64,000 nucleotides of DNA from Nitrososphaerota archaeon (GCA_033581555.1 JAVQSZ010000002.1:64001-128000), one strand, 5' to 3'; counted from the first letter of the stretch, positions 1,316 to 37,180 are shown. Made by a program: numbers and translations. The notes: generated by a model from the letters alone, not told the origin.

Positions 1316-2368
1316 ATGAGCCTTCCGAGCTACGTGGGCTCCATGAAGGGCAGGTCGTTCCTGAACACGAACGACTTCACGAGGGAGGAGATCGAGGAGG
1401 TCCTGAAGGCCGCGAGGGACCTGAGGGAGAAGTTCAGGTCACGGGTCCCTACGCCCTACCTCCCGGGGAGGACGCTCTTCATGCTCTTCTACAACAGGAG
1501 CCTAAGGACCAGGAACTCCTTCGAGGCCGGCATATTCCAGCTCGGGGGCCACGCGCACTTCCTCAGCCCTCAGGACGTCTACACCCCGACCCTCCCTGAG
1601 GATATGGTCCCGTATCAGACCGAGTCGATCGCGGACGTCGCGAGGGTCCTGAGCAGGTACGGCGACGCGATCGCGATCAGGATCTACGGGGACGCCGCGA
1701 AGTGGCACATAGGTAGGGGCCACAGGGTCGTGAGGGAGTTCGCAAAGTGGAGCTCGATCCCGGTGTTGAACATGGAGGACGACCTCTACCACCCGTTTCA
1801 GGCGCTCGCGGACATCATGGCCATCACCGACGTCGCCCCTAACCCGAGCGGGAAGAAGTTCGTCGTCTCCTACGCCTATTCAGGTGGGCTGAAGCCGCTC
1901 GCCGTCCCGCAGAGCTGCGTCCTGATAGGGACGATGTTCGGGATGGACGTGGTCCTGGCTCACCCGAAGGGCTTCGAGCTGGAGGAGGGAGTGATCAAGG
2001 CTTGCGAGGAGAACGTTGACAGGTACGGCGGGAGCTTCGAGGTCGTCCACGACATGAAGGAGGCCTTCGAGGGCGCGGACTTCGTCTACCCGAAGGCCTG
2101 GTCGCCAAGAGGCTTCTTCCCGCCGTACAACGGCAAGGTCGACAAGGAGGGCGCGGTGGAGTACCAGAACAGGTTCAAGGACTGGATCTGCACCCAGGAG
2201 CTGATGGACCTGACGAGGAGGGGGAAGTACATGCACTGCGGCCCGGCGGACAGGGGGCAGGAGGTGACGGACGACGTGATCGACAACCCCGAGTACTCGC
2301 TTTACTTCGAGCAGGCCGAGAACAGGCTGCACGTGCAGAAGGCAGTGATGTGCATGGTGATGGGCTAG
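1316..2368 (+). CDS. YgeW-like (knotted) carbamoyltransferase
   Basis: SLRT carbamoyl-phosphate motif, HPFQALAD and HCGPAD. The segments [29 protein letters not shown] and [11 protein letters not shown] parallel E. coli YgeW (recalled TWAYSPSYGKPLSVPQG, ADIVYPKSWAP) rather than OTC. Confidence 0.8.
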
Positions 2369-3906
2369 CCCGCGCCCCTGGCCCCCAGCATCATCACTCC
2401 CACCTGCTCCAAGCTCGCCGAACCCCTCTCCAGTATTCCCACCATCTCGCCCTTGTACATCACGCCTATCCTGTCGCTCATCGCGAGGAGCTCCTCGAGG
2501 TCGTCGGAGAGGAGGACGATCGCGACGCCCTTCGACTTCAGGTCTAGGAGGAGCCTCCTGACGAAGTCGGTCGCCCCCACGTCGAGTCCTTTCGTCGGGT
2601 ACGCCGCGAGGACGAGCCGCGGCAGCTCTCCGGTCGGGCACGCGAAGAGCTCCCTCGCGATCACCAGCCTCTGGAGGTTGCCGCCGGAGAGGGTCTGGGC
2701 CTTCGCGGTCGCGGACCTAGTCACGATCGAGAGCTTCCCGATCAGCTCCTCGGACCTCCTCCTCATCAGCTTCCTGTTCAGTATCCCGGCCCTCGAGTAG
2801 GGAGGCCTCCTGTAGCACTTCAGCAAAAGGTTCTCGGCGACCTCCAAGCCCAGCCCTACGCCCTTCTGTGGCTCCGGGACGATCATCGAGACACCCTCGA
2901 GGACCAGGTCGTAGGTGTGCGCGTTAGTGACGTCCATCCCCATGAGGATTACCCTCCCCCTCGATACCTTCCTGAGCCCGTAGATCGCCTCGAGGAGCTC
3001 GTCCTGACCGTTCCCCGCCACCCCAGCTATCCCGAAGATCTCGCCCCTCCTGACGCTGAACGAGACCCCCTTCACTGCCAAGTGTCCCCTCTCGTCCCTC
3101 ACGTGGAGGTCCTCGACCACCAGGACCGGCTCTTGCGAGGGCGGAGGAGCGTGCGGGTAGGAGAGCCCCACCTCCCTCCCTATCATCAGGGAGACCAGCT
3201 CCTTCATGGAGACCTCGCTAGTCCTCCTGACCGCGACGACCCTCCCCTTCCTCATCACAGTCACCCTGTCGCTCACCCTCATCACCTCCTCCAGCTTGTG
3301 CGTCACCAACACGACCCCCATCCCGGAGTTGGCCATCGCCCTCACGCTCTCAAAGAACTGGGCGGTCTCCTGGGGCGTGAGGATCGACGTAGGCTCGTCG
3401 AGGATGAGGACCTTCGCCCTCCTCACGAGCATCTTGAGGATCTCGACCTGCTGCTTCTGGGAGGCGGTCAGCTGCCAGACGTAGTCGTCGGGGCTCACGT
3501 TCCAGCCGTACCTCGCGACCAGCTCCGAGAGCATCGACCTCAACTTGCCGTAGTCGAGCACGATCCCGGCCTCCTTCAGGCCCAGGACGACGTTCTCGAG
3601 GACCGAGTGCTTGGGGATCAGCTTGAACTGCTGGTGGACCATCCCGAGTCCGTGCCTTATCGCGTCCTTCGGCGACCTAATGTTGACCCTCCTGCCCTCT
3701 ATGAGGATCTCGCCCTCGTCCTTGCTGTAGAGCCCGTAGAGTATGTTCATCAGCGTCGTCTTCCCCGCTCCGTTCTCGCCCAGCAGCGCGTGGACCTCTC
3801 CCGCGTAGAGGGTGAAGTCGACCCCGTCGTTGGCCACGACCCCTCCCGGGAACCTCTTCGTTATCCCCCTCATCTCGACCAGGGGGATCAGCTGGGGATC
3901 CGTCAA
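2365..3906 (-). CDS. CUT2-type (nucleoside/sugar) ABC transporter ATP-binding protein with tandem ABC domains
   Basis: [36 protein letters not shown]. Start placed at TTG 3906; the ORF-track extension overlaps the next gene. Confidence 0.9.
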
Positions 3907-3977
3907 CTCGTTATAGTGAATGCCGTTCAGCAATAAAAGAGTGATGGACGGTGCGCTGCGGTTTTGACGGCATGAGG

Positions 3978-4208
3978 TCAAACGACGACCGCGGTCTCCG
4001 TCCTCTCGACCCCCTCGACGGCGTGGACGCGCTCGACGATCAAGGACCCGAGGGCCTGCAGGTCGGACGCCTCGACGAAGGCGATAACGTCGTACCTCCC
4101 CGTGACGTTGCAGACAGCGAGGCATCCCTGGACCTTCGTGAGCTCCTGGGCGACCCTCTTCGCGTAGCCAGGCTTGGTCCTGATCAGTACGTACGCTTGA
4201 ACGGGCAT
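3978..4208 (-). CDS. Stand-alone Lrp/AsnC ligand-binding (RAM) domain protein
   Basis: AYVLI...[13 protein letters not shown]...GVERTET is the RAM-domain pattern; no HTH. Confidence 0.85.
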
Positions 4209-4249
4209 CTCACCGCACCAACACCCCCGTCAGTATAAGTCTTCCGCGG

Positions 4250-5446
4250 TCAGTATGTCAGCCTCCCGAGAAGGGTCAGCTTGACGGCCTCACCGAACGT
4301 CGCGTGGGCGCCGGGCGGGACGACTAGGAACGCGTTCGCCCTGGACGCGGTGTAGAGGTTGTTGACGCCCTTAGGGAGCACCTTCGCCCTGACCCCCTCT
4401 CCGGATGGCTCAAGCGATGCGAAGTAGACGCTGCTGACGCCCGGTCTTCCGGGAGCGTCGCCGTCCAGACCGGCAGCGAGCTCGGGTGGAGGCGACCTGA
4501 GGCGGTAGAGGGACCTCAGGTAGGGCGCCCCGATCAGATGGAGGCCAGCGATCGCGGCTGTCAGGGAGCCGGGAAGGATTAGCCAGCTCCGCTCCCTCAC
4601 CATCACCAAGCCGACCGGCTTGCCGGGGTGGAGCCGCACGCCGTGGAAGAGGACCTCTGCGCCCTCCATCTCCGCGTAGGCTTTCCGGACGACGTCGTTG
4701 CTCCCGCTCGAGGCCCTCCCGACGGTGACGACCAGGTCGTTGGTCTCAGCGGCCCCCTTCACCCTGCCCACCAACCCGTCGACCTCGTCCCCGACCGCTT
4801 CGATCGAGGTAACATCGCAGCCCATCTGGCGGAGGTACGATGCGACGACGTGGGCGTAGTCGTTCGGGATGGCCCTCCCCGACTCGCTCAGGAGCTCACC
4901 GCCGACCGAGATCACGGCACACCTCGGCCTCCTGTACACGGAGACCCTCCTTACGCCCAGCTCCGAGAGGACGGCGACCTGCGGAGGCCTGAGGAGCTCG
5001 CCGCGCTCGACGACCCGATCGCCGGCCCTGAAGAATGAACCCCTCCTCTCGACGTTCTCCCACCTCTCGGCCATCCCCCTGAAAACCAGCTTCTGGCCCT
5101 CGAGCTTGACGTGCTCCGTCCTGATCACGACGTCCGATCCCGGCGGGATCGGCTGTCCGGTGAGGACGCTCACCGCCCACGGCCCATCCCCCGGAGACTC
5201 CGAGAGCTTGAGCCTCACCGCGCCCCCGCCGTCCCTCCGCTCGAGGAACTCGAACTTGGTCGCGAAGCCGTCGAGGGCCGCCCTGTCGACTCCGGGGACG
5301 TCGGAGCCCGAGAAGACCGGCTCTGCGACGACGCGACCTACCGCCTCCTCGATCGGCAGCTCGATCAGCTCCAGCGTCCTCCGGGACCCCGCGGAGACTG
5401 CAGCCCTCTGGGCCTCCTCGAGGGTCACCAGCTTCAGCGCACTCAC
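4250..5446 (-). CDS. moeA: Molybdopterin molybdotransferase MoeA
   Basis: GRVVAE, DRAALDGFA, TGQPIP, GGEL, HPGKP, LPG motifs; GTG start at 5446. Confidence 0.85.
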   Translation of the reverse strand: MSALKLVTLEEAQRAAVSAGSRRTLELIELPIEEAVGRVVAEPVFSGSDVPGVDRAALDGFATKFEFLERRDGGGAVRLKLSESPGDGPWAVSVLTGQPIPPGSDVVIRTEHVKLEGQKLVFRGMAERWENVERRGSFFRAGDRVVERGELLRPPQVAVLSELGVRRVSVYRRPRCAVISVGGELLSESGRAIPNDYAHVVASYLRQMGCDVTSIEAVGDEVDGLVGRVKGAAETNDLVVTVGRASSGSNDVVRKAYAEMEGAEVLFHGVRLHPGKPVGLVMVRERSWLILPGSLTAAIAGLHLIGAPYLRSLYRLRSPPPELAAGLDGDAPGRPGVSSVYFASLEPSGEGVRAKVLPKGVNNLYTASRANAFLVVPPGAHATFGEAVKLTLLGRLTY

Positions 5447-5453
5447 CGAGACC

Positions 5454-5948
5454 TCACCCGGTGGGCCCGCGGACCACCCGCAGGACCTCCGAGAGGAGCT
5501 CGTCGAACTGATCCGGCAGGAGGTACCTCGCCGATGGGTTGGGCGCAAAGGAGACCGGGATGTCGTTCGGTCCCACGTCCTCCCCCTCCTCTCTGAGCAC
5601 CCTGATCCTGACGACGCCCTCGGAATCCTGAGGCATCATCGACTGGAAGCCCTCGACGACGAGGAAGTCCACGTCGCCCGCGAGCGCCCTCAAGTCCCCG
5701 ACCCCCCTAATCGCGACGGACCTGTGGATCACCGCGGTCTCCCTCGGGGAGGAGACGATCACCGGGTCGGCACCGGACTGGTAAAGCCTCCAGCTGTCGG
5801 ACCCCTCCCTTTCGATCGTGAAGTCGGCGTGGTGGACGTGCTTCGCCGCCGCGACCCTGTACCCCATCGACCTGAGCGCCGAGACGATCATCGAGGCGAG
5901 CCTCGTCTTACCTGCCTTCTTGAACCCGAAGACCGCTATGACCCACAC
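5454..5948 (-). CDS. mobB: Molybdopterin-guanine dinucleotide biosynthesis protein B
   Basis: GFKKAGKT P-loop, AKHVHH, GSDSWR, DFLVVEGF; start approximate. Confidence 0.85.
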   Translation of the reverse strand: MWVIAVFGFKKAGKTRLASMIVSALRSMGYRVAAAKHVHHADFTIEREGSDSWRLYQSGADPVIVSSPRETAVIHRSVAIRGVGDLRALAGDVDFLVVEGFQSMMPQDSEGVVRIRVLREEGEDVGPNDIPVSFAPNPSARYLLPDQFDELLSEVLRVVRGPTG

Positions 5949-6034
5949 CGGCTCCTCAACGCCCCGGACCGTGAAAAGCTTAACCCGATCCCTCCCGGTT
6001 TTCATCTTATTACTCACGGCGAGGTATTCGAAGT

Positions 6035-7042
6035 GTGGGCTCGATACCCCGTCTCGGGCTCTATCTTCAGGACATGCACGTCAGGGAAATGATGAGGTAC
6101 GCGCAGATCGCTGAGGAGCAAGGTTTCGAGTCGGTTTGGATCGCCGAGTCCAGGCTCTCGAGAGACGCGATAGTCCCGATGACCGCCATCGCCGCCGTGA
6201 CAGAGAGGATCAAAGTTGGAGCGGGCGTGATCAACACCTGGACAAGGAACGCCGCGTTGATCGCTCAGACATTCGCGACCCTCGACGAGCTCGCCGACGA
6301 CAGGATCCTGCTGGGCCTCGGGGCTTGGTGGGACCCGCTCGCGTGGAAGGTCGGGATCGAGAGGAGGGAGCCCCTTAAGTGCATGAGGGAGTACGTCGAG
6401 ACGATCAGGAGGCTCCTCAGGATGGAGGAGGTGACCCATGAGGGCGAGTTCGTCAAGCTGAGGGGCGTGAGGCTGGACGTCCTGCACGGCAAGGGTCCGG
6501 TCCCGAGGAACGTCCCGATCTACATCGGCGCCACCGGGTTCAAGATGATGGAGCTATCGGGCGAGATAGCGGACGGCGTCCTCCTCAACTACTTGGTCTC
6601 GCCTCTTTACAACGACAAGGCCATCGAGCACATCAAGGTCGGGGCCGCGAGGGCCAAGAGGAGGCTGGAGGACATCGACAGGCCCCAGCTGATAGCCTGC
6701 TCGGTCCACGAGGACGGCGACTACGCCGTCAAGCTCGCGAAGAAGCACGTAACGATGACCCTCGGCCAGCAGCCCCACATCATGAAGGCGAGCGGCGTGA
6801 GAGAGGACCTAATCGAGGAGGTTCAGAGGGCGATGGGCGGATGGCCCGCGAAGCCTGGCGGGATCGAGAGGGCGATGGAGATCGTCCCGGACGACGTCGT
6901 GAGGCTCATTACGGCATCGGGCACGCCGTCCGAGGTGAAGAGGAAGATCGAAGAGTACATGGCCCACGGCTGCACCGCGCCCCTCATCCTCCCGCTGAGC
7001 GGCGACGTCGAGTACGCGATTAGGGCCCTCGCAGCCCTCTGA
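6035..7042 (+). CDS. LLM-class (luciferase-like, Mer/F420-type) flavin-dependent oxidoreductase
   Basis: [57 protein letters not shown]. Confidence 0.9.
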
Positions 7043-7051
7043 GGTGGGACG

Positions 7052-8422
7052 ATGAAGTCCGAGAGGAAGCTGGTCAGGGGCGGAGTGTTAGTCACGATGG
7101 ACGACGAGCTCGGCGTGATCAGGGACGGAGCCGTCCTGGTCGAGGGCGAGAGGATAGCCGCGGTCGGGAAGGCCGACGAGTTGACGAGGACGGAGAAGGT
7201 CGACGAGGTCGTCGACGCGAGGGGGAGCTTCGTGCTTCCGGGGCTGATCTGCGGCCACACCCATCTGTACGGGATCGCGCTGAGGGGATCCGGCCTGAAG
7301 GTCGAGCCGCCGACTGACTTCCTCCAGATCCTCCAGAGGGTCTGGTGGCCGCTGGACGAGAGGCTGGACAACGAGGCGGCTTACGCGACGGCCCTGGCCG
7401 CGTCCATGGAGATGGCCCTCACCGGGACCACCTGCTTCGCCGACACGTACTCCGCGCCCAACGGAATCGAGGGGTCCCTCGACGCGATCGCAAGGGCGGT
7501 CGACGAGGTCGGGATCAGGGGCCTGATCTCCTTCGAGGCGACGGAGAGGCGGAGCGGCGATGAGGGCCTTAGGGGGCTGAAGGAGAACGAGCGGTTCCTC
7601 TCGAGCTCATCCTCGCGGAGGGCGATGGGGATGGTGAGCGTCCACGCGTCCTTCACGGTCACCGACGAGCTGATCGAGAGGGCCGTAGAACTCTCGAGGC
7701 GGTTCGACTGCCCGATCACGGTCCACGTCTCCGAGGGGCCGAACGACGTCTACCACAACATCGAGAGGTACGGCATCAGGACCGTCGAGAGGCTCGAGGG
7801 GCTGGGGTTGCTCTCGCCGAGGGCTGTCCTGGCCCACTGCGTCCACCTCTCACCGAAGGAGATATCGATCCTCGCGAGGACGGGGGCGAACGTCGCCCAC
7901 AACCCGATGAGCAACATGCTGAACGCCGTGGGCGTCTCCCCGGTCCCGGAGATGCTCAGGGAGGGCGTGAACGTCTGCCTCGGGAACGACGGCTACGTCT
8001 TCGACGCCTTCGAGAACGCGAGGGCCGCGTTCCTGGTCCACAGGGTCCACAGGAGGGACCCGACCGCGCTCTCCGCGAAGGTGGTGCTAGAGATGGCGAC
8101 CGTCAGGGCTGCTGGGGCTTACGGCCTGAAGGACCTAGGGTCCCTGAGGCCCGGGAAGCTCGCGGACCTGATCGTCGTGAGGCCGACCGTAATGGCTACG
8201 CCCCTCACCGGAGACCCGTACTCCTACGTCGTCAACGGGCTGAGGGGATCGGACGTAAGGCTCGTGATGGTCGGCGGCGAGGTCGTCGCTAGAGACGGGA
8301 GGCTCACGAGGCTCGACCAGAGGGAGGCGGAGGAGAGGGTCCTCAGGTCGATCGAGAGGCTCTGGGAGAAGTTGGGCGAGGGGCCGCTCAGGGCCGTCGA
8401 GCCTCTGCGCGGAGGTGCGTGA
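7052..8422 (+). CDS. ssnA: SsnA-like amidohydrolase (Atz/Trz family)
   Basis: PGLICGHTHLY, DFLQILQRVWWPLD, IEGSL, FEATER, HASFT, HVSE, AHCVH, HNPMSNM, LGNDG; closely parallels recalled E. coli SsnA. Confidence 0.75.
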   Translation: MKSERKLVRGGVLVTMDDELGVIRDGAVLVEGERIAAVGKADELTRTEKVDEVVDARGSFVLPGLICGHTHLYGIALRGSGLKVEPPTDFLQILQRVWWPLDERLDNEAAYATALAASMEMALTGTTCFADTYSAPNGIEGSLDAIARAVDEVGIRGLISFEATERRSGDEGLRGLKENERFLSSSSSRRAMGMVSVHASFTVTDELIERAVELSRRFDCPITVHVSEGPNDVYHNIERYGIRTVERLEGLGLLSPRAVLAHCVHLSPKEISILARTGANVAHNPMSNMLNAVGVSPVPEMLREGVNVCLGNDGYVFDAFENARAAFLVHRVHRRDPTALSAKVVLEMATVRAAGAYGLKDLGSLRPGKLADLIVVRPTVMATPLTGDPYSYVVNGLRGSDVRLVMVGGEVVARDGRLTRLDQREAEERVLRSIERLWEKLGEGPLRAVEPLRGGA

Positions 8423-9684
8423 GCGTGTCCTTCGTCAGGGAGCTGGTCTGCTCGAGGTGCGGAAGGAGCTACCTGCCGACCGAGAGGCCGGTCCTCTGCG
8501 CCTCCAGGGACCTCGGGAGGCTCGACGTGGTCTACGACTACGAGGAGCTGAAGGAGTTCCTGACCAGGGAGGCGGTCTCGAGGAGGCCTTGGGCCGGAGG
8601 GGTCTGGAGGTACTGGGAACTGCTCCCTGCCGCGATGGAGTTCGGCGCGCCCTTCGACGAGGGCCTGACACCGCTGTTCTGCGCCAGGAGGCTCAACGAC
8701 CACCTCGGCCTGAGGAGGATGAGGCTGAAGGACGAGACCCGGAACCCCACGAGCTCCTTCAAGGACAGGGCGATGGCCGTGGGAGCCGCGAAGGCCGCCG
8801 AGTGGGGTGCGGAGACGGTTGTGACCGCATCGAGCGGGAACGCTGCCTCAGCGCTAGCCGCATACGCAGCGAGCCTGGGCCTGAAGTGCGTCGCGTTCGT
8901 CCCCGAGAACGTCTCGCTCGGGAAGGCGGCGCAGCTGATCTCCTACGGCGCGAGGCTCTTCAGGGTCAAGTCGGTCGAGGAGGGGAGGGACCCGACGGTC
9001 CAGGCGATGCTGAGAGCGGTCGAGGAGTTCGGGTGGTACCCCTGTCCGAGCTTCGGCCCCTTCAACCCGTACCAGGTCGAGGGCCCCAAGACCATCGTCT
9101 ACGAGGTCGCGGAGCAGTTGGGCTGGAGGTTCCCGGACGCGTTCATCGTCCCGACTGGCTCGGGGTGCCTTCTCGCGGGGATCTGGAAGGGCGTGAGGGA
9201 TCTGGTCGAGCTGGGGCTCGTTGAGGGCGAGATGCCGAGGTTGATAGCGGTCCAGCCGGAGGGGAACCAGCCCCTGGTGAGGGCTGTCAGGAAGGGACTC
9301 TCCTTCAGCGATGTCGTGCCCGAGAGGTCGCCCAAGTCGATCGCCTCCGGGTTGCTGGACCCGTACCCCTGGGACGGCGACGCGGCGATGGAGGGGATAA
9401 GGAGGACCGGTGGGACAGGGGTCGCGGTCACCGACGAGGAGATCCTCGAGGCGGTCAAGCTCCTAGCCAGCAAAGCAGGCGTCTTCGCGGAGCCCTCGGG
9501 CGCGGTCGGAGTCGCGGCCGCGGTGAGGCTGCAGGACGAGGGCCACCTCGACGGGTCGGACGAGGTAGTAGTGCTGGTCACGGGTTCGGGGCTGAAGGAG
9601 GTCGAGAAGCTGGTCCCGACGGTCGGTGAGATACCGCTGATAACGCCTGACGTCGAGCAGTTGAGGCGCTACCTGGGGACCTGA
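8419..9684 (+). CDS. Threonine-synthase-like PLP enzyme (fold type II)
   Basis: N-terminal CxxC, NPTSSFKDR (PLP lysine), ASSGNA, EGPKT, PTGSG, EPSGA, TGSGLK; 4-bp overlap with the ssnA-like gene. Confidence 0.85.
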   Translation: MSVSFVRELVCSRCGRSYLPTERPVLCASRDLGRLDVVYDYEELKEFLTREAVSRRPWAGGVWRYWELLPAAMEFGAPFDEGLTPLFCARRLNDHLGLRRMRLKDETRNPTSSFKDRAMAVGAAKAAEWGAETVVTASSGNAASALAAYAASLGLKCVAFVPENVSLGKAAQLISYGARLFRVKSVEEGRDPTVQAMLRAVEEFGWYPCPSFGPFNPYQVEGPKTIVYEVAEQLGWRFPDAFIVPTGSGCLLAGIWKGVRDLVELGLVEGEMPRLIAVQPEGNQPLVRAVRKGLSFSDVVPERSPKSIASGLLDPYPWDGDAAMEGIRRTGGTGVAVTDEEILEAVKLLASKAGVFAEPSGAVGVAAAVRLQDEGHLDGSDEVVVLVTGSGLKEVEKLVPTVGEIPLITPDVEQLRRYLGT

Positions 9685-11069
9685 GCCCTCGTCGCCCTAT
9701 GGACGTACCGCCCCCTCCCGGGCCTCGAGGTGACCTCTCCGTCCTCAGCGACCACTTCGCCCCTCGAGATCGTCAGCACGGGGTACCCCGTGACCTCAAC
9801 CCCCTCGTAGATCGAGAAGTCGAGCCTGCTGTGGAGGACGTCCTTCCCGAGCCTCACCCTCCTCTCCGGATCGATCAGAACGATGTCCGCGTCCGCTCCC
9901 ACCGCGATCCTCCCCTTTCTCGGGTAGAGGCCGTAGACCCTCGCGGGGACGTAGGAGGTCAGGCGGACGAAGCGTTCGAGGCTGATCCTGCCCTTCCTCA
10001 CTCCCTCCGAGAAGAGCGTCGGAACGATCGTCTCAGTCCCCTGGACGCCGCCCGGGATCTCCCTGAAGTCCCTCGACTTGAGCTTGTGGGCAGAGGCATA
10101 GGGCGCGTGGTCGCTCCCCACCACGTCGATCTGCCCCGAGGCGAGCCCGGACCAGAGGGCCTGGGCGTCCTCCCGCGTCCTCAGGGGCGGCGCCATGACG
10201 AAGAGCCCACCGTCGGGCCTCGAGTAGACCTCCTTCGTGAGGAGGAGGTAGTGGGGACAGGTCTCAACCCACATCCTCGCCCCGATCCCCCTCGCGGCCT
10301 CCGCGGCCCTCAACCCCGCTCCCGAGGAGAGGTGGACGACCAGGACCTCTGCCCCGGTCACCGACGAGAGGTAGCCGAGCCTCAGGACCGCCTCCGCCTC
10401 CGAGACCGCCGGCCTGCTCTCCTCGTACCTCGAGACGTCCGCACCCGCCTCCTCCACGACCCTCTCGGTCTCCTTCAGGACAATCCACTCGTTCTCGCAG
10501 TGGCAGAGGACCAGCACCCCGGCCCTCGAGGCCCAGCTCAGCGCCCTGAGGAGGGACCCGTCGTCGATCATCAGCCCCCTCCTGCTGTAGGCCGTGAAGA
10601 CCTTGACCGAGGAGACGCCCCTCCCGCCCACGAGCTCGTTCAGCTCAGCCTCTACCCTCGGACCCCACTCGAGGACGCAGACGTGGAGCCCGAAGTCGAT
10701 CCTCGACTTCGCTGACGCGGCCGCCAGCCTCTCCTCGAAGGCCCCGACGATCGATCCTCCCCTCTCGGGCGTGACGAAGTCGATGAAGGTCGTGACGCCA
10801 CCACACGAGGCCGCTGAGCTGCCCGAGTCGAAGTCATCAGCGGTCGCCATCCCACCGCCGTACTGCATCTCGAAGTGGACGTGCCCGTCTATCGCACCAG
10901 GGACGACCACTTTCCCGGAGGCGTCGATCACCCTTTCGGCCCGTGCCTCGATCGACTTCGCGATGACCGCTATCTTCCCGCCCTCGACCCCAATCTCGCA
11001 CTCGAAGGTCCCGAACGGGTCAGCCACCCTGCAGTTCCTCAGGACCAGGTCAAACCCCAACTCCCGCAC
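9669..11069 (-). CDS. hydA: Dihydropyrimidinase / D-hydantoinase (HyuA/HydA-like)
   Basis: PGAIDGHVHF, GGVTTFIDF, KVFTAY, HCEN, VHLS, ETCPHYL, PPLR, SDHAP; GTG start at 11069. Confidence 0.9.
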   Translation of the reverse strand: MRELGFDLVLRNCRVADPFGTFECEIGVEGGKIAVIAKSIEARAERVIDASGKVVVPGAIDGHVHFEMQYGGGMATADDFDSGSSAASCGGVTTFIDFVTPERGGSIVGAFEERLAAASAKSRIDFGLHVCVLEWGPRVEAELNELVGGRGVSSVKVFTAYSRRGLMIDDGSLLRALSWASRAGVLVLCHCENEWIVLKETERVVEEAGADVSRYEESRPAVSEAEAVLRLGYLSSVTGAEVLVVHLSSGAGLRAAEAARGIGARMWVETCPHYLLLTKEVYSRPDGGLFVMAPPLRTREDAQALWSGLASGQIDVVGSDHAPYASAHKLKSRDFREIPGGVQGTETIVPTLFSEGVRKGRISLERFVRLTSYVPARVYGLYPRKGRIAVGADADIVLIDPERRVRLGKDVLHSRLDFSIYEGVEVTGYPVLTISRGEVVAEDGEVTSRPGRGRYVHRATRAQVPR

Positions 11070-11079
11070 CGCCTTGAGC

Positions 11080-12864
11080 TCAGGCCGGGACGACGGCCGC
11101 GACCGGGTCGACGAACCTCTGCGCGTTGACGTCGAAGAGACCCTTGTCGGTAACGCGGGCCTCGGGGATGACCGAGAGCGTGAGGAGTGAGACGATCGGC
11201 ATGTACGGGTGGTCGATCGCACCGAGCCTCTCCAGCGCCCTTCTGAATCCCCTCATCTTCTCCGCCATGACCCGCACGGGCTCCTCGGACATCAGCCCCG
11301 CGATCGGGAGCTCTATCCTCGAGAGGACCTCGCCGTTCAGGGTCGCGACCAGTCCTCCCTCCGACTTGACGACCTCTGTCGCCGCGAGGTGCATGTCCCT
11401 CGGGTCGGTCCCTATCACTGCGAGGTTGTGGGAGTCGTGGGCGACCGTGGTCGCGATCGCGCCCCTCTCCATGAAGCCCTTCACGAACCCGTAGCCCCTC
11501 TTCCCAGTGCCCCTGTGCCTCTCCATTACCACCATCAGCGCGACGTCGCCCAGCAGGGCCCTACCTCCCCTGACTTCGACCTCGGCGGTAGACCTCTTCG
11601 TCACGATCATCTCCAGGAACGCCCTCGAGACGTCTTCCACGGACGGGTCGGGCCTCCTGAACTCGATCACGTTCAGGACCAGCTTGCCGTCGCTGATCGG
11701 CGGCCTGAACTCGAAGTCTTCAGGCCTCAGGTCCTTGACCCTGACGGTGCCCAGGGCTCTCTTGTCGAACCTCCTCTCCGGGAGCTCCGCGACGAGCCTT
11801 CCGTCCCTCGCGACGACCTTGCCCCCGAAGAGCACCATCCTCACGTCGATCCTCTTCAGGCTACCGAGGACTACTAGGTCGGCGAGCTTACCAGGCGAGA
11901 CCGCTCCCAGCTCGAACATCCTCATGTGGGTCGCGGGCCTCAGTGTCACGCTCCGGATCGCCTCGACCTCGTCCATGCCGGCCTCGATCATCGACCTGAC
12001 CACGAAGTCCAGGTGTCCCCTCTCCGCGAGCGTGTCGGGCATCACGTCGTCCGTCACAAGGATCACCCGGTTCCAGGGGCTCGGGAGAGAGCCGATCGAC
12101 CTCACGAACCTCCTTGGGTCCAGGATGTAGGGCCCCCTCAGCTTGACGTACATCCCCCTCCTGAGCTTCTCGACCGCCGACTCGACAGTGAAGTTCTCGT
12201 GGTCTGCCTCAGGGCCCGTCGCGACGTACGCGTTCAGCCTCGCGCCTGAGAGGAGTACGCAGTGCCCGTCGATCACGCACCTCCTCCTCCAGCCTATCTC
12301 GAGGATCCGCATGAACTTCTCACGGCCCGCGAGGACCGACTCGAAGTCCATCACCTCGCCCAGCCCCACAATCCCTTCCCAGTCGAGGGCCCTCTCGACG
12401 TCCTCCGGGGTGATCTCGGCCCCAGCCGTCACCGCATCGGACTCCGGGACGCAGGTCGGGACGAAGTAGGTGATCCTCATCGGTAATTCCCTAGAGTTCT
12501 CGAGCATCATCCTGACGCCCTCGATCCCGAGGACGTTCGCGATCTCGTGGGGGTCAGCGCAGACCGTCGTGGTGCCGTGCGGGAGGACGGCCTCCGCGAA
12601 CCTAACCGGGGTGACCATGCTGCTCTCGATGTGGAGGTGGGTGTCGATGAAGCCCGGCACCACCACGCCCTCTACGTCCAACACGCCCTCGGCGCTCGGA
12701 GCGTCCTTGCCCACGTAGACTACCCTGTCCCTGTATATCCCGACGTCGGCCCATTCTACCTCACCCGAGTAGACGTTGAGGACCTGGGCGCCCCTCAAAA
12801 GGAGCGTGAGTTTCCTTTTGCCCTGCGCAGCCTCGACGAGCTCCCTGATGTACTGCGCGTCCAT
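11080..12864 (-). CDS. ade: Adenine deaminase
   Basis: PGFIDTHLHIESSMVTP, DPHEIANVLG, GLGEVM, DHE, TDD, AHDSHN, LPIAGLMS. Confidence 0.93.
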   Translation of the reverse strand: MDAQYIRELVEAAQGKRKLTLLLRGAQVLNVYSGEVEWADVGIYRDRVVYVGKDAPSAEGVLDVEGVVVPGFIDTHLHIESSMVTPVRFAEAVLPHGTTTVCADPHEIANVLGIEGVRMMLENSRELPMRITYFVPTCVPESDAVTAGAEITPEDVERALDWEGIVGLGEVMDFESVLAGREKFMRILEIGWRRRCVIDGHCVLLSGARLNAYVATGPEADHENFTVESAVEKLRRGMYVKLRGPYILDPRRFVRSIGSLPSPWNRVILVTDDVMPDTLAERGHLDFVVRSMIEAGMDEVEAIRSVTLRPATHMRMFELGAVSPGKLADLVVLGSLKRIDVRMVLFGGKVVARDGRLVAELPERRFDKRALGTVRVKDLRPEDFEFRPPISDGKLVLNVIEFRRPDPSVEDVSRAFLEMIVTKRSTAEVEVRGGRALLGDVALMVVMERHRGTGKRGYGFVKGFMERGAIATTVAHDSHNLAVIGTDPRDMHLAATEVVKSEGGLVATLNGEVLSRIELPIAGLMSEEPVRVMAEKMRGFRRALERLGAIDHPYMPIVSLLTLSVIPEARVTDKGLFDVNAQRFVDPVAAVVPA

Positions 12865-12966
12865 ACCGATTGGGCGTCGCCGGTGTTAATTTAGGTGAGG
12901 GGCCATGACCCCGGGACCGCGGCCTGGACAAACCGATATCTCTCGGGGCTTGTGGGAAAGGGGAGC

Positions 12967-13593
12967 ATGGAGCAGGTCCAGGGGAGGCTGCCTCCAGGTC
13001 AGAGGTACGTCCGGGACTTCATCGTCTACGCGGCGCTGGGGATACCGAGGGTCGACCTGAACAGCTACAGGCTCTCGGTGACTGGTCTCGTCGAGAGGCC
13101 GCTCTCGTTCACCTACGAGGAGCTGCTCAGGATGCCGATGAAGAAGTACGTCAGGGACGCCCACTGCGTTACCAAGTGGTCGGTGAAGGACGTCGAGTGG
13201 GAGGGAGTTCAGATCAGGTACCTCGCCGAGCTCGCCGGCGTCAAGCCCGAGGCCAGGTGGGTGATGTTCAGGTGCCTAGACGGCTACTCGGCCCCCGTGC
13301 CGGTAGAGGACGCGCTGGACGAGTACTCTATCGTCGCTTTAAGGATCAACGGGAGGCCCATACCCCTCGAGAACGGGTTCCCCGCGAGGCCCTTCATCCC
13401 CCACCTCTACCTCTGGAAGAGCGCGAAGTGGTTGAACGAGATCGAGTTCATCGAGGAGTATGAGGACGGGTTCTGGGAGAGGCCAGAGAACGGCGGCTAC
13501 CATGAGCGGGGGAACGTCTGGCAGGAGGAGAGGTTCAAGGACGCGGGCGGGTTCCACTCGAGGAGGAGGCCGATCAGGCCGAAGGGTTTCTGA
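12967..13593 (+). CDS. Sulfite-oxidase-family molybdopterin oxidoreductase (YuiH-like)
   Basis: RLPPGQ, HCVTKWS (Mo-ligand Cys), [17 protein letters not shown]...GYHERG. Confidence 0.9.
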
Positions 13594-13614: not shown

Positions 13615-14382
13615 TCAAGATGGCAAGAACTTGGACCTGAGCCTGCTGCTCGCGACGTCTATCGCAACGACGAACGCTAGGACCACGAGCAGGGCCGTCG
13701 TGAGGGACCTGTAGTCGAGGACCTGGACGTAGGAGAGGATGTAGAACCCGATGCCTCCCGCGCCGACCAGCCCGAGGATCGTCGAGGCCCTCACGTTGTA
13801 CTCGAACATGAAGATCGCCTGGCTGATGATGTAGTTCGCAGACTCAGGGATCACGACGTACCTCATCAGAGCCAGCTTCCCCGCGCCAGAGATCCTGACC
13901 GAGTCTAGGACGTCCCTGTCGACCGCATCGAAGGCCTCGTAGAGTAGCTTGCCGAGGTATCCGATCGAGTACACCGCGGTCCCCAGGACGCCGGCTAGGG
14001 GCCCGAACCCGACTGTGATGACGAAGAGGAGCGCCCAGAGGATGGCCGGGATGGTCCTAATCACAGACAGGAGGAACCTGAAGAAGCTGGTGACCGGCGC
14101 AGTGAACAACGACCTGCTGCTCAGCGATGCCAGCGGCACCGAGACTAGGACCGCGAGCGTCGTCCCGGCGAGCGCTATCAACACCGTCTCGAGCATGCTC
14201 CCGAGGAGAACCGGTATCGGCTCCGGGTCTGGAGGGAAGGCGTTCGCGAGGAAGACGCAGAGGTTCGGGAGCTTGGAGATCGTCCTTGGGCTGAAGGCTC
14301 CGAAGTGCCAAAGCAGGACCAGCGCGACCCCCAGGAGGATCAGGAGGTTCGCGTTGGGGCCGGCCCACCGTAAGGCCCTCAA
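13615..14382 (-). CDS. phnE: Phosphonate/phosphite ABC transporter permease PhnE
   Basis: RTIPAILWAL, GPLAG, FEYNVRASTILGLVGAGGIG. Confidence 0.9.
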   Translation of the reverse strand: MRALRWAGPNANLLILLGVALVLLWHFGAFSPRTISKLPNLCVFLANAFPPDPEPIPVLLGSMLETVLIALAGTTLAVLVSVPLASLSSRSLFTAPVTSFFRFLLSVIRTIPAILWALLFVITVGFGPLAGVLGTAVYSIGYLGKLLYEAFDAVDRDVLDSVRISGAGKLALMRYVVIPESANYIISQAIFMFEYNVRASTILGLVGAGGIGFYILSYVQVLDYRSLTTALLVVLAFVVAIDVASSRLRSKFLPS

Positions 14383-15086
14383 AACACGCTCAGGACCTCC
14401 TCGACGGACGCGTTAGAAGCGTCCTTGTGGAGCGCGATCCGGCCGTCCCTGATCACAGCGACCTTGTCGCCGAACTTCGGGACGAGGTGGACGTCGTGTG
14501 TGGTGATCGCGAACCCTATCCCTTGCGTCCTCAGGTCCCTAGTCAGCTCCAACACCTCCAGCGAAGTTAAGGGGTCGAGCTGGGAGACGAACTCGTCGGC
14601 GAGGACAATCTTCGCGCCTTGGACCAGTGCCCTCGCGATCGCGACCCTCTGCTTCTGCCCGCCGCTAAGCTCTTTCGCCTTGACGTTGACGTAATCCCCG
14701 AGTCCCAGGAGCTCGCAGGCGTCCTTCGCCCTCGAGACCGCCTCTCTGGGGAAGGACCCGACGACCTGCGAGAAGAGCGAGAGCCCGCCGAGGGCCCCGA
14801 GGAGCGCGTTCTCCAGGACCGTGAGGTTCTCGACGATGCCGATCGCCTGCGGGACGTAAGCTATGGCCCGACTTCGCCTCCCGTCGACTTGAAGGCCCTC
14901 GTATACCACGGAGCCCGACTGTGGTTTCAGGAGGCCCGCCGCGAGCTTGAGGAGCGTCGTCTTCCCCGCGCCGCTCCTCCCCAGGACCATCAGGACCTCG
15001 CCGGACTCGATGTCCAGGCTCACGGAGCTGAGGACCGGCCTCCCGGGCCTGTAGGCGAAGCTCACGTCCCGCAGCGATATCCTCAA
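14379..15086 (-). CDS. phnC: Phosphonate ABC transporter ATP-binding protein PhnC
   Basis: GRSGAGKTT, LSGGQKQRVAIARAL, ADEFVSQLDP; lies between phnD and phnE. Confidence 0.85.
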   Translation of the reverse strand: MRISLRDVSFAYRPGRPVLSSVSLDIESGEVLMVLGRSGAGKTTLLKLAAGLLKPQSGSVVYEGLQVDGRRSRAIAYVPQAIGIVENLTVLENALLGALGGLSLFSQVVGSFPREAVSRAKDACELLGLGDYVNVKAKELSGGQKQRVAIARALVQGAKIVLADEFVSQLDPLTSLEVLELTRDLRTQGIGFAITTHDVHLVPKFGDKVAVIRDGRIALHKDASNASVEEVLSVF

Positions 15087-15096
15087 CGGAGGTCCC

Positions 15097-16026
15097 TCAA
15101 GCGTCGTACCCGAGCCCCGTCAGCTCGATGAACCTTTGCAGGGAGGCGAGGTGCTCCTTCGAGTCCTTCCTCTCCCACCCGACGAAGAGCCCGGAGACGA
15201 GCCTCCTCATGAGCTCCCTGTACTCCTCCCTCCCGAGGTCCTCAAAGGCCGAGATCAGGAGCTCCCTCGTCCGCGGGTCCAGCCTCTTCGAGACGACCAG
15301 CGTGTGGGACGGGAGCGGCCCCTGCTGCTCGATCACCCTGGTCGTGGCCATCACCTTCTGGAAGAGGTCGTAAGCGACGTCGCCCGCGGTCACGGTCACG
15401 TCCACGTTCCCGGCCATCAAAGCCTCGTAGCACTGCTGGTATCCGCCGCCGAAGTAAACCTCGGAGAAGAACTCCTTCGGGTCGACGGGCTTATCGCCCT
15501 TCCTGGTCAGGAGACCGAGCTCAACCATCCTCGCGAGCGGCGCCAGGTAACCCGAGGACGAGATGGGGCTCGGGAAGCAGACCCTCTTCCCCCTCAGGTC
15601 CTCGAGCTTGGTGTACGGCGAGTCCGGCCTCACGATCCAGTACGAGAAGTAGAACGTGCCCTCGACCCTCCTGCCGTCGATCGCCACGGTCCTCACCTCC
15701 GCGAGGTAGACCTCCGAGTCCGCGACCCTCACCGCGATCGCGGACGGCCACGAGCCCATCATCGCCGCGTGGACGTTGACGTACCTCAGCGCCTCGATCA
15801 CCGCCGAGTAGCTCGTCGGGACGTAGACCTCGACCGGTCTGCCGAGCTTGGCCGTCAGGTACTCCTTCAGCTGCTGGGCCCTCTCGAGGATCGCTGCGGG
15901 GTTCTGAGTCGGTTGGATCGCGACAACGATCGGCTCGTCTCTGGTCTGCACGCCCCAGAGGGACCAAACCGCGATGGACGCCAACGCGACGATCGCAAGG
16001 ATCCCGAGGAGGTGCGAGCGTCTCAC
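15097..16026 (-). CDS. phnD: Phosphate/phosphite/phosphonate ABC substrate-binding protein PhnD
   Basis: N-terminal signal/TM segment, YSAVIEAL, DLRGKRVCF.SPISSSGYLAP. Confidence 0.85.
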   Translation of the reverse strand: MRRSHLLGILAIVALASIAVWSLWGVQTRDEPIVVAIQPTQNPAAILERAQQLKEYLTAKLGRPVEVYVPTSYSAVIEALRYVNVHAAMMGSWPSAIAVRVADSEVYLAEVRTVAIDGRRVEGTFYFSYWIVRPDSPYTKLEDLRGKRVCFPSPISSSGYLAPLARMVELGLLTRKGDKPVDPKEFFSEVYFGGGYQQCYEALMAGNVDVTVTAGDVAYDLFQKVMATTRVIEQQGPLPSHTLVVSKRLDPRTRELLISAFEDLGREEYRELMRRLVSGLFVGWERKDSKEHLASLQRFIELTGLGYDA

Positions 16027-19900: not shown

Positions 19901-19974
<74 letters not shown>

Positions 19975-30348: not shown

Positions 30349-31245
30349 TCAACGTGTGAAAGTCTGATGAGATACCTCGTAACGCGAGTACTTGATCATC
30401 CCGAGTCCCGCTGTCCTCTCGTCGCCGACGTTGAAGAGTTCCCCCAGCTTGAGAAGCGCATCGGTGAACCTCATGAAGGTCTCGGACATCAGCGAGTCTG
30501 AGGGTATTACGTAGTGGACCCTCCCCAAGAATCCGATGCTCGCCCCACCCCGTTTCAATGAGACAGTCTTTATGCCCTTCGGATAGCCAGAGCACGCAAC
30601 CCCCCCGGCCTTCAGCCACCTCCTGTACGCCTCATTAGGAACTGGCGTCTCGCCGAGGTTGGCAACCCAGAAGTTAAGGAGGCTCACCAACAGCCTCTCA
30701 GGATCGGGGAACATCACGTTGCGCGGAGGAGCCAGCCACACTCGATCACCGCTTAGGCCCAGCAGATCGGACACGTCCCTCGGCGGCGCGGTAAACCTTG
30801 TGGGTGTGATGAAGCGTACCGCGAATCTGTTCACCGGGACTGACCTCTTCCAGAGCTCTCGAAGTTCTATCAATCTGAAGTCGATGGCCTCAACTTTGCA
30901 CTCAGTTCCGTTGAATGAGACCTTGTTGAGCGCCATTATTCCTTTGCTGAGCGCTCCACTGAGTCGTTCACCGAGAGCAGTTACGTTGAAGTAGAAAATC
31001 TTCTCAGGAAGTAAATACCTGTACACGGGCTCCGCAGTTGCTGCATCGATCACCGGCGTGACAGAGTAGGGCGCCGGCTTATTTGTTGAGTGAATCTCGT
31101 CAGCCAAGCTACCGTCAACCGAGGACAATATATTGTAAAATAATCCCTGTACCGCGTATCCACTGTAATCTGAGAAAGTGATCGGCGCTCTGGTTTTGAA
31201 CGAGATAGTGAACCTCGCGCACAATTCTTGGGAGTCGTATTTCAT
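30349..31245 (-). CDS. cas6: CRISPR-associated endoribonuclease Cas6
   Basis: H...PAPYSVTP, FITPTRF, FPDPERL, C-terminal G-rich loop GELFNVGDERTAGLG. Confidence 0.9.
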   Translation of the reverse strand: MKYDSQELCARFTISFKTRAPITFSDYSGYAVQGLFYNILSSVDGSLADEIHSTNKPAPYSVTPVIDAATAEPVYRYLLPEKIFYFNVTALGERLSGALSKGIMALNKVSFNGTECKVEAIDFRLIELRELWKRSVPVNRFAVRFITPTRFTAPPRDVSDLLGLSGDRVWLAPPRNVMFPDPERLLVSLLNFWVANLGETPVPNEAYRRWLKAGGVACSGYPKGIKTVSLKRGGASIGFLGRVHYVIPSDSLMSETFMRFTDALLKLGELFNVGDERTAGLGMIKYSRYEVSHQTFTR

Positions 31246-32375: not shown

Positions 32376-33193
32376 TAAACTTCACCTCCTAATGCGCTCT
32401 TCAGCTCCTCGATGAATTGAGTACGACTAGATGTCGATTCGTCGCTCCGCCTGCTCTCGGAAGCATCTAGGTTGTCTCCTATCAATATCGGTAAGAGAAT
32501 CAAAACATACCCCTTCAGCTTCTTTCTCCTGGTAGAATCTTCTTCAAAATTCGATATGCTTTTCATCAGCTCTACGACTTCCTCAAAAGATATCTTCTCA
32601 GCTAGCGCTTCGTGAACGTGATAGGTCTCTATCCCCGTTCGTCTAGATATGTAATCGGACAAGTTGGAGAGATATTCTCTCTTGATATATCCACCGGTTT
32701 TTATCAAGTGGATAAACTTGTCGCGAATTTCTCTGTGCTCGCCGCTAAGATAAGTCACATCGAACGTGAAAGCCTCTTTGAAGTTATCGAAAGTCCTACC
32801 CATGGCGTGCAGATGATCCAAAACAGCGAGAACAGTCAAGTGTGTGAGATCGCTCTTCTCTCCTAAACTGTCAAAAACTCTCTTAAGGTATACAGCTGAA
32901 AACACCTCATGTAGGTAGAAGCCAGACGCCCTTCCCTCTATAGGGGTGCAATCGTCTTCGTAATTGACTTGGTATGCTTCGATAGCCTTTCCTACGTCAT
33001 GAAACACGCCGGCGATCATAATACTCTGCTTGATCTCCTCGGGCGAGGTCCCTATACCTAAGACTCTGAGGCGTCCCGAAACAGTCTCGTGGTAGCCGTT
33101 ATCGATTATCTTCTCAACATATTTCAGGACTCCTTCGGTGTGTCGTATCAGCGATTGACCTCTATAAGCACACGGCTTGCAGTCGGTCACCAC
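32375..33193 (-). CDS. cas3'': CRISPR-associated HD nuclease Cas3''
   Basis: LIRH, FHDVGKA, HEVFSA, DHLHAM, GDNLDA. Confidence 0.9.
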   Translation of the reverse strand: MVTDCKPCAYRGQSLIRHTEGVLKYVEKIIDNGYHETVSGRLRVLGIGTSPEEIKQSIMIAGVFHDVGKAIEAYQVNYEDDCTPIEGRASGFYLHEVFSAVYLKRVFDSLGEKSDLTHLTVLAVLDHLHAMGRTFDNFKEAFTFDVTYLSGEHREIRDKFIHLIKTGGYIKREYLSNLSDYISRRTGIETYHVHEALAEKISFEEVVELMKSISNFEEDSTRRKKLKGYVLILLPILIGDNLDASESRRSDESTSSRTQFIEELKSALGGEV

Positions 33194-35650: not shown

Positions 35651-35660
35651 GGTTGATCTA

Positions 35661-36683: not shown

Positions 36684-36684
36684 C

Positions 36685-37131: not shown

Positions 37132-37180
37132 GCGAGCCAAAAATATACAAGATGGTATATAAGATTTATTCACCCGGAAA

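Follow-up and report, generated by a model that had tools for sequence, protein, structure and literature searches.

The locus studied here occupies positions 1316..13593 of a 64,000-nt stretch of DNA from a Nitrososphaerota archaeon (GCA_033581555.1, JAVQSZ010000002.1:64001-128000); this whole stretch is called the window below, and coordinates refer to it unless a contig is named. The locus brings together a luciferase-like (LLM) reductase, an SsnA-like amidohydrolase, a hydantoinase, an adenine deaminase, a carbamoyltransferase and a pyridoxal-phosphate (PLP) enzyme, which we read, with good support, as a purine catabolic cluster containing a reductive ring-opening module. Genes in the window were called from a listing of open reading frames (ORFs) and from Pfam and NCBIfam scans, which recovered, at or near the expected places, every gene named in an earlier note on this DNA; outside the window, genes were delimited by a GC3-based ORF picker rather than a trained gene caller. 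The nearest proteins and loci belong to Candidatus Caldarchaeales/Calditenuaceae, with 90% identity to the protein of a metagenome-assembled genome of Caldarchaeales; a haloarchaeal origin, considered at first in view of a GC content of 63-67%, was rejected on the strength of these matches. The assembly (72 contigs, 1.43 Mb) is 90.6% complete, and C5, C6, C7, C8 and C12 denote other contigs of this same genome.

On the plus strand lie a carbamoyltransferase of the OTC/ATC family, hereafter CT1 (1316..2368, 350 aa, PF02729 and PF00185), and three consecutive genes for an F420-type LLM oxidoreductase (6035..7042, PF00296, 229 bits), the SsnA-like amidohydrolase (7052..8422; best NCBIfam model SsnA, NF005540, 350 bits) and a PLP enzyme of the threonine synthase family, hereafter ThrC-like (8419..9684, PF00291; TIGR00260, 188 bits). 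The first two of these genes lie 9 nt apart and the last two share 4 nt, so that all three form one tight operon, as the earlier note had described. On the minus strand follow a HyuA-like dihydropyrimidinase/D-hydantoinase (9669..11069), which passes the model of HyuA's own family (TIGR02033, 445.2 bits against a cut-off of 393.25) and which E. coli HyuA, at 36% identity, matches better than any other gene of the genome, and an adenine deaminase (11080..12864; PF13382, 175 bits; TIGR01178, 438 bits, cut-off 472). The affiliation of the hydantoinase with HyuA, proposed from the sequence, is therefore upheld.

These families recall the reductive purine pathway, which was worked out in 2025, in gut bacteria only according to the main texts of Li et al. 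(2025) and Liu et al. (2025). As given there for E. coli and Clostridium sporogenes, the bacterial urate/2,8-dioxopurine route uses XdhD-YgfM or DOPDH, YgfK/DOPOR, SsnA, HyuA, YgeW, YgeY, YgeX and YqeA. The archaeal set resembles it in having a molybdenum (Mo) hydroxylase, a reductase, a ring opening of SsnA type and a hydantoinase of TIGR02033, followed by a carbamoyltransferase and a carbamate kinase that would yield ATP and, last, a PLP lyase of fold type II. It differs in that the archaeon has no YgfK, YgeX or YgeY, carries an F420-type LLM at the position of the reductase, possesses two carbamoyltransferases, and has a ThrC-family enzyme in the place of DpaL; moreover, the host is a thermophilic archaeon from hot springs and not a gut anaerobe. 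Both preprints deal with bacteria only, and the terms ‘archaea’ and ‘threonine synthase’ are absent from their text, supplements aside; no description of the archaeal cluster was found in the literature searched, including two genomics papers on Caldarchaeales/Thaumarchaeota.

The affiliation of the amidohydrolase was analysed from a homologue search of 1.84 billion representatives, of which the best 150 matches were retained. The tree (FastTree, LG+gamma) comprised 152 sequences, namely 138 of these 150 representatives (the 12 others, with lengths outside 400-520 aa, were left out) and 14 references taken from the loci described below and from E. coli. The SsnA-like proteins and canonical SsnA are united by a node with a support of 1.0 that covers 117 of the 152 tips, and outside this node the best models are of the MTA/SAH-deaminase type. 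Within it, a single clade (support 0.958, including the two nearest representatives) unites the archaeal SsnA-like sequences, and its sister clade of 106 tips, supported at just 0.533, holds E. coli SsnA and a Hadarchaeales SsnA. All eight tested members of this sister clade pass the SsnA equivalog cut-off. Scores on the SsnA model range from 350 to 425 for the five SsnA-like members tested, the lowest being that of the window protein and the others lying at 381-425, and from 478 to 556 for the canonical ones; for the protein of the window, the second-best NCBIfam family reaches 284 bits. Reciprocally, E. coli SsnA finds the window gene as its best match in the genome, and E. coli GuaD finds another amidohydrolase on contig C5. 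The HxH, HxxE and Asp metal/catalytic residues are intact. From its sequence, the protein is thus assigned to the nearest sister family of SsnA rather than to SsnA proper. The grouping with SsnA instead of MTA/SAH deaminases, which the earlier note had expected of this gene, holds; the protein is nonetheless a sister paralogue that stays below the SsnA cut-off, and six Hadarchaeales loci contain its relatives together with canonical SsnA. Solved structures were also tried as a means to tell SsnA from deaminases and gave no separation: none of the 23 matching chains bears the title SsnA, and the top one is an MTA/SAH deaminase (175 bits).

Concerning the reductase, the 15 best NCBIfam models of the LLM protein are all F420-dependent LLM families, none of which is reached at its cut-off (Mer: 199 bits, cut-off 276), and FMN-dependent models score at most 53 bits. 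The genome encodes CofD (288 bits, cut-off 257) and Fno (161 bits, cut-off 150). E. coli YgfK has no tblastn match in the genome at E<=1e-5, and the LLM fold family, PF00296, is unrelated to YgfK/DOPOR (TIGR03315). The LLM is accordingly only proposed, from its family and its position, as a candidate F420H2-dependent reductase of a heterocycle. This idea has a precedent: the available text of Li et al. (2025) reports SsnA clusters of Chloroflexota in which a putative F420-dependent luciferase-family enzyme was proposed as an isoxanthine reductase. The archaeal locus is similar to this variant in that a PF00296 LLM stands beside an SsnA-type gene instead of YgfK or UacX; it differs in that the Chloroflexota SsnA proteins belong to IPR017700, in a network that is bacteria-only in that text, whereas the archaeal proteins fall below the cut-off of this model. 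A link to Chloroflexota through the LLM itself was looked for and not obtained, as the named sequences among the best 120 LLM matches listed are all archaeal, with no bacterial names.

To characterize the gene neighbourhoods, one genome per prokaryotic species was scanned with the SsnA-like protein, which yielded 80 loci encoding a relative (49-90% identity) in Caldarchaeales and further Nitrososphaeria, in Bathyarchaeia, Hadarchaeales and Asgard archaea, and in one record that bears the label Acidoferrum. The surroundings of these loci were searched by tblastn with the window proteins and others, and 150 neighbours from 12 of the loci were scanned with Pfam. In 23 of the 80 loci, the gene immediately upstream of SsnA-like encodes the LLM; these 23 make up all of the 25 Nitrososphaeria loci apart from two whose upstream DNA is missing. 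The identity of the LLM (72-93%) is above that of the SsnA-like protein itself. Genes for the hydantoinase (at least 46% identity) and for Ade or an Ade-like protein (38-93%) occur in 14 and 20 loci, respectively, and ThrC-like directly follows the SsnA-like gene in six. Frequent neighbours include XdhC and MocA-type genes for Mo-cofactor maturation. Asgard loci have neither LLM nor cyclic amidohydrolase, DHO_dh+Fer4 or Mo-maturation neighbours.

The most complete version of the cluster was found in six Caldarchaeum loci (L031, L033, L034, L035, L045 and L084). It begins with a Bmp/PnrA transporter and an Ade-like gene; one strand then carries LLM, SsnA-like, the FAD, FeS and Mo subunits of a xanthine dehydrogenase (Xdh)-type enzyme and a second carbamoyltransferase (CT2), and the other strand carries CT1, ThrC-like and carbamate kinase, with ThrC-like between the two others. 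The succession of reductase, SsnA-like, FAD, FeS and Mo genes is the same as that of E. coli ygfK-ssnA-ygfM-xdhD. Bathyarchaeia contain comparable groupings, in which ThrC-like adjoins CT2, carbamate kinase and CT1. In one Bathyarchaeota genome, approximately 30 kb encode XdhC, two Xdh sets, LLM (62% identity), an Ade-like protein, a deaminase-type amidohydrolase, ThrC-like, CT2, carbamate kinase and CT1 (74%), with the SsnA-like gene and a cyclic amidohydrolase located approximately 280 kb away on the same contig; in a second one, carbamate kinase, CT2 and ThrC-like are adjacent, with LLM 16 kb off.

In the window's own genome, the parts that complete this set lie elsewhere; the earlier note had listed carbamate kinase and the Xdh-type enzyme as missing from the window. 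Contig C7 encodes the FAD, FeS and Mo subunits of an Xdh-type enzyme followed directly by a carbamate kinase (C7:90357-91292; TIGR00746, 412.7 bits against a cut-off of 358.25) that is 47% identical to E. coli YqeA. The C7 genes are orthologous to those of the Caldarchaeum cluster (Mo subunit, 61%; FeS subunit, 64%; carbamate kinase, 72%; CT2, 76%), and the Mo subunit of the other Xdh set, on contig C5, is just 37% identical to the Mo subunit of that cluster. The small ‘molybdoenzyme’ that had been counted in the window itself is real, but it is a protein of the sulfite oxidase family and not an Xdh-type enzyme.

CT1 and CT2 were then compared with known carbamoyltransferases. CT1 scores highest on AOTC (NF003384, 277 bits, cut-off 288), against 234 on OTC, and its best solved structure is also an AOTC (PDB 3KZC, 211 bits); its Hecatella orthologue passes the AOTC cut-off at 313. 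By HMM, CT1 is not an orthologue of YgeW, its scores on the two YgeW models being 149 (NF005538, cut-off 453) and 146 (TIGR03316, cut-off 500); CT2 scores 147 and 142. In its motifs, CT1 (SLRTR, HPFQ and ‘VYPKAWSP’) is nonetheless comparable to YgeW (STRTR, HPTQ and ‘VYPKSWAP’): both CT1 and CT2 keep the carbamoyl-phosphate motifs and show the ‘YPK/R-S/A-W’ of YgeW in place of the DxxxSMG of OTC (DVFVSMG). In a small tree, which had no AOTC, SOTC or PTC references, CT1, CT2 and YgeW stood apart from OTC (0.933), with YgeW weakly nearer to CT2 (0.72). The proximity of CT1 to AOTC, in HMMs and solved structures, fits the placing of YgeW in the available part of Barba et al. (2013), where the YgeW group shares an ancestor with AOTC and SOTC.

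Canonical ArgF (383 bits, cut-off 306) and PyrB are encoded elsewhere in the genome, so that CT1 and CT2 are extra carbamoyltransferases, and the location of CT1 in an operon with carbamate kinase in relatives indicates a catabolic context. CT1 thereby differs from AOTC proper, its best HMM and structure match, both in this context and in not reaching the AOTC cut-off. No orthologue of YgeY was found in the genome, in which only an M20 peptidase matches (70 bits against a cut-off of 321, approx. 25% identity). To the two replacements that had been proposed for this pathway, at the reductase and at the final lyase, a third should therefore probably be added, with a second carbamoyltransferase in place of YgeY. 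As a side observation, CT1 is far more conserved than its partners, being 74-95% identical across archaeal phyla against 49-66% for the SsnA-like protein, which would reflect either a very strong constraint or a recent transfer; the best 120 CT1 matches listed (74-89%) include Nitrososphaerota, Nezhaarchaeales, Hadarchaeota, Conexivisphaerales and Bathyarchaeia.

The ThrC-like protein keeps the fold, the SFKDR motif of the PLP lysine and the N-terminal Cys-rich segment of threonine synthase. It is the most divergent of three threonine-synthase-family paralogues in the genome, the two others scoring 284.5 and 298.7 on TIGR00260. Throughout the ThrC-like clade, the sequence reads ‘GLLDPYPWDGD’ where the C12 paralogue has ‘AIRIGRPVNW’, a segment that we take to be a typical hallmark of threonine synthases. 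An orthologue of YgeX/DpaL is missing from the genome, where the sole match is a threonine-dehydratase-like gene on C6 (25% identical, 57 bits). The absence of ygfK and dpaL that had been noticed within the cluster thus extends to the whole genome, and is shared by ygeY. The ThrC-like protein, which co-varies with the purine cluster (see below), is our candidate for the terminal lyase. Separately, a threonine-synthase-family paralogue on contig C6 (L105:1198-2749) has a gene for a small ThiS-family protein directly behind it; it may be a synthase that depends on a sulfur carrier, and not a threonine synthase.

Co-occurrence was evaluated in 76 genomes of the order, representing 15 genera; as these genomes are kin, the counts are not independent. 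Canonical SsnA was detected in none of the 76. The SsnA-like gene (at least 329 bits) is present in 30 genomes, in 8 of the 15 genera, and all 30 also contain ThrC-like (33 genomes in total) and CT1 (34 genomes, usually with CT2 alongside). LLM is found in 26 genomes, every one of them among these 30. In 42 of the 76 genomes the cluster genes are lacking; most members of the window's own family are among these, and within this family SsnA-like and LLM are restricted to the window's genus. The three other genera of the family are devoid of cluster genes, except for one sister genus in which two of three genomes encode CT1, ThrC-like and CT2. In these two genomes, the three genes lie on one contig (G019:C2:44716-54707 and G020:C4) and neither SsnA-like nor LLM was found, which suggests that the pathway's lower half can occur by itself.

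These distributions bear directly on a reading in which the locus would be a chance grouping of housekeeping genes, namely those for a deaminase of MTA, SAH or 5'-deoxyadenosine, for a threonine synthase, for an (acetyl)ornithine carbamoyltransferase that serves arginine synthesis and for a C1 enzyme resembling Mer. Indeed, public labels of the relatives (‘MTA/SAH deaminase’, ‘ornithine carbamoyltransferase’, ‘methylene-H4MPT reductase’) say as much, among solved structures it is an MTA/SAH deaminase that matches the SsnA-like protein best, ThrC-like scores above the cut-offs of two threonine synthase models (TIGR00260, 188.0 versus 167.1; PRK08197, 311 versus 303), and CT1 almost reaches that of AOTC. 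However, the genes are accessory and occur as a set, a pattern that speaks against housekeeping functions, and their recurrence in relatives together with their co-variation over the 76 genomes shows that the grouping is more than chance. Moreover, the genome already holds canonical ArgF and two better candidates for threonine synthase, the synteny with Xdh, carbamate kinase and hydantoinase extends across phyla, and the tree groups the SsnA-like protein with SsnA. The housekeeping explanation is thus largely refuted, and we consider it very improbable. The conservation of the neighbourhood that the earlier note had asked about is in turn well documented, both by the LLM and SsnA-like pair (23 of 80 loci) and by the accompaniment of SsnA-like by ThrC-like (30 of 30 genomes).

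Two further neighbours of the SsnA-like gene were recorded outside Nitrososphaeria. In 33 of the 80 loci, the adjacent gene on the divergent side encodes a cyclic amidohydrolase (dihydroorotase/allantoinase/hydantoinase-like); these loci belong to Bathyarchaeia, Hadarchaeales, the Acidoferrum-labelled record and one record labelled Methanobacteriota. In 16 loci, all from Hadarchaeales, a DHO_dh+Fer4 reductase lies directly downstream of the SsnA-like gene and scores 214 bits against PreA (cut-off 335). As a second alternative, the cluster might encode a reductive pyrimidine pathway, with the LLM as an F420-dependent dihydropyrimidine dehydrogenase, the TIGR02033 protein as a dihydropyrimidinase, a carbamoyltransferase and carbamate kinase removing the ureido group of N-carbamoyl-beta-alanine, and the SsnA-like protein as a cytosine-type deaminase. 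The score of the hydantoinase on the dihydropyrimidinase model (445 versus 393), the PreA-like neighbours and the fold of the SsnA-like protein, within a deaminase-rich group of amidohydrolases, are all compatible with this possibility. However, it leaves no role for the Xdh-type enzyme encoded in the same Caldarchaeum operon, for adenine deaminase, for two carbamoyltransferases or for ThrC-like; the SsnA-like protein is sister to a ring-opening enzyme, and the PreA cut-off is not reached. A pyrimidine pathway therefore appears improbable to us.

The Hadarchaeales arrangement has a counterpart in Clostridioides difficile, in which, according to the available text of Li et al. (2025), UacX is a DHO_dh+Fer4 reductase and UacY a hydrolase. 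The gene following SsnA-like in the 16 Hadarchaeales loci has this UacX architecture. The window differs from the C. difficile variant in that it contains LLM and not UacX, and in that the cleavage of ureido groups appears to be phosphorolytic, through carbamoyltransferases, rather than hydrolytic.

Taken together, these elements lead us to consider it rather likely that the window holds the core of a purine-base catabolic pathway that follows the logic of the bacterial reductive urate (2,8-dioxopurine) route, with different enzymes at several steps. In such a scheme, purine bases, taken up or released, would be deaminated by adenine deaminase and hydroxylated or dehydroxylated to an oxopurine by Mo hydroxylases of Xdh type, of which C7 encodes the one linked to the cluster. 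The LLM would then pass a hydride from F420H2 to this oxopurine, a dearomatisation, and the SsnA-like protein would open the ring at once by hydrolysis, thereby drawing the unfavourable reduction forward, much as the reduction by YgfK is pulled forward by SsnA in bacteria in the account of Li et al. (2025). The hydantoinase would open the second ring to give a diureido acid, whose two ureido groups could be phosphorolysed by CT1 and CT2 (both of the YgeW/AOTC group, CT2 being encoded on C7), with CT2 replacing the hydrolase YgeY. The carbamate kinase of C7 would convert the resulting carbamoyl phosphate into ATP, and the diamino acid left over, probably 2,3-diaminopropionate, might be converted to pyruvate by ThrC-like with elimination of ammonia.

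Several observations weigh against this reading, to which the threonine synthase scores of ThrC-like and the low YgeW scores of CT1, below those on AOTC, must be added. First, the SsnA-like protein lies below the cut-offs of both SsnA models (NF005540, 350.1 versus 444; TIGR03314, which corresponds to IPR017700, 325.2 versus 455.5), it shares 7 of 15 conserved SsnA-specific columns and not the other 8, and the His-His pair that is invariant in canonical SsnA (E. coli 125-126) is Thr-Tyr throughout the SsnA-like clade. Second, in six Hadarchaeales loci, a pair of SsnA-like and UacX-like genes is accompanied by a canonical SsnA, the copies of which are 79-100% identical to one another, and in two of these loci (L052 and L059) also by a canonical YgfK; the copies of L052 score 556 bits for SsnA and 1011 bits for YgfK. 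That both pairs are maintained suggests different substrates rather than equivalence, and a simple one-for-one replacement is not established by such loci. Third, Caldarchaeum genomes contain a second LLM (approx. 51% identical to that of the window) beside further amidohydrolase paralogues, which suggests that such pairs have diversified. Fourth, CofH was not found in the genome, the assembly of which is 90.6% complete. Finally, the insertion of XdhD bearing Glu606 has no counterpart in the Mo subunits of C7 and C5, in that of the Caldarchaeum cluster or in E. coli XdhA, and the C7 Mo subunit is equally similar to XdhA and XdhD.

The available text of Li et al. (2025) links the Glu606-bearing segment of XdhD to the formation of 2,8-dioxopurine. 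The archaeal Mo enzyme, which consists of three subunits and has no such insertion, was hence rejected as an XdhD-like protein, and the ‘2,8-dioxopurine-type’ label that the earlier note had given to the pathway is unproven; 2,8-dioxopurine as the substrate is not well supported. As for the second LLM module itself (e.g. G013:C28:736-4392 and G012:C1:361541-365194), it is flanked by two amidohydrolases of SsnA/ATZ-TRZ type that score 277-280 and approximately 240 bits on the SsnA model.

These points could also be accommodated by the same architecture (reduction, ring opening, removal of ureido groups and gain of ATP) with the LLM/SsnA-like pair acting on a heterocycle other than a purine-derived oxopurine of the 2,8-dioxopurine type, for which a different oxopurine isomer, an oxidised product of guanine, a pterin or a hydantoin-type compound are candidates, with 2,8-dioxopurine handled by YgfK/SsnA where these are present. 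The coexistence of both pairs in the six Hadarchaeales loci, the change of His-His to Thr-Tyr and the 8 of 15 unshared signature columns, the second LLM/amidohydrolase module of Caldarchaeum and the Mo subunit without the Glu606 insertion all speak for this reading. However, canonical SsnA is missing from all 76 genomes of the order, and yet SsnA-like has around it the complete complement of purine genes, upstream as well as downstream, and the gene order matches E. coli ygfK-ssnA-ygfM-xdhD; adenine deaminase, Xdh-type enzymes and the Bmp/PnrA-type transporter also point to purines. We therefore regard another heterocycle as unlikely.

In any case, the remodelled pathway with two replacements that the earlier note had put forward is partly supported: the gene context is in agreement with it, but a one-for-one exchange is not demonstrated and the number of replacements is probably three. 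A stronger proposal would be that Caldarchaeales, other Nitrososphaeria and Bathyarchaeia possess a reductive purine catabolism of their own kind, built from an F420H2-dependent LLM, a sister family of SsnA, two knotted carbamoyltransferases and a ThrC-like diaminopropionate/albizziin lyase; we advance it tentatively, as somewhat less than an even prospect. If true, both ureido groups would be harvested as carbamoyl phosphate, so that two ATP would be gained per purine instead of one, three non-orthologous displacements would have occurred within one pathway, and hot-spring and subsurface archaea would make ATP from purines at the substrate level. A conserved archaeal version would place the route widely beyond guts and beyond Bacteria, and would point to nucleobases as a source of nitrogen, carbon and ATP for heterotrophic Nitrososphaeria, Bathyarchaeia and Hadarchaeia. 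It would also assign functions to families now labelled ‘MTA/SAH deaminase’, ‘ornithine carbamoyltransferase’, ‘threonine synthase’ and ‘methylene-H4MPT reductase’, and would offer thermostable candidates, independent of selenium and Fe-S, for the difficult dearomatising step.

The remaining genes of the locus are less tightly associated with this core. A tandem-domain ABC ATPase of the sugar/nucleoside (Bmp/PnrA-type) class is encoded at 2365..3873 on the minus strand, with two ABC_tran domains; a 586-aa ORF extending up to 4125 is an over-extension, the ABC domain beginning at approximately residue 85. Copies of this gene, 50-91% identical, are found near the cluster in Caldarchaeales, and in Caldarchaeum beside genes for a Bmp/PnrA binding protein and permeases; the Bmp gene that matches the ATPase of the window is located on contig C8 of the same genome. 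On C8, the same Bmp-type transporter class is also seen with a CODH/glyceraldehyde-DH-like Mo subunit (L018:7428-14544), next to genes for an FdrA-like protein, a cyclase and AllG (oxamate carbamoyltransferase subunit, PF06545), a group that may constitute a second, oxalurate-type route to carbamoyl phosphate.

Still on the minus strand, a stand-alone RAM (Lrp/AsnC ligand-binding) domain protein of 76 aa (3978..4208; PF01037, 55 bits, E 7e-15) adjoins the cluster in 4 of the 80 loci (L021 and L024-L026), all from the closest relatives. It is followed by genes for the molybdopterin molybdotransferase MoeA (4250..5548; PF03453 and PF00994) and for MobB (5454..6017; TIGR00176, 87 bits against a cut-off of 76), which adjoin the cluster only in the window and in L021, so that the membership of MoeA in the pathway is uncertain. 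The small molybdopterin-domain protein of the sulfite oxidase family (12895..13593, plus strand; PF00174, 142 bits) adjoins the cluster only in L021-L023, and it is doubtful that it belongs to the pathway. Genes for a phosphonate/phosphite-type ABC transporter (PhnE, PhnC and PhnD, 13615-16026) also adjoin the cluster, an association conserved in the closest relatives only. MoeA, MobB, the sulfite-oxidase-family protein and PhnCDE were accordingly rejected as core parts, as their adjacency is limited to the closest relatives (L021-L023).

Further along the window, a tRNA gene is located at 19901-19974. No CRISPR repeat array was seen between 26000 and 41000, an interval that includes a region of low GC content (30349-37903; 0.48-0.55, against approximately 0.64 around it) coding for a type I-A-like CRISPR-Cas system with Cas6, a Cas3-type helicase, Csa2/DevR (Cas7), Csa5 and Csa3.

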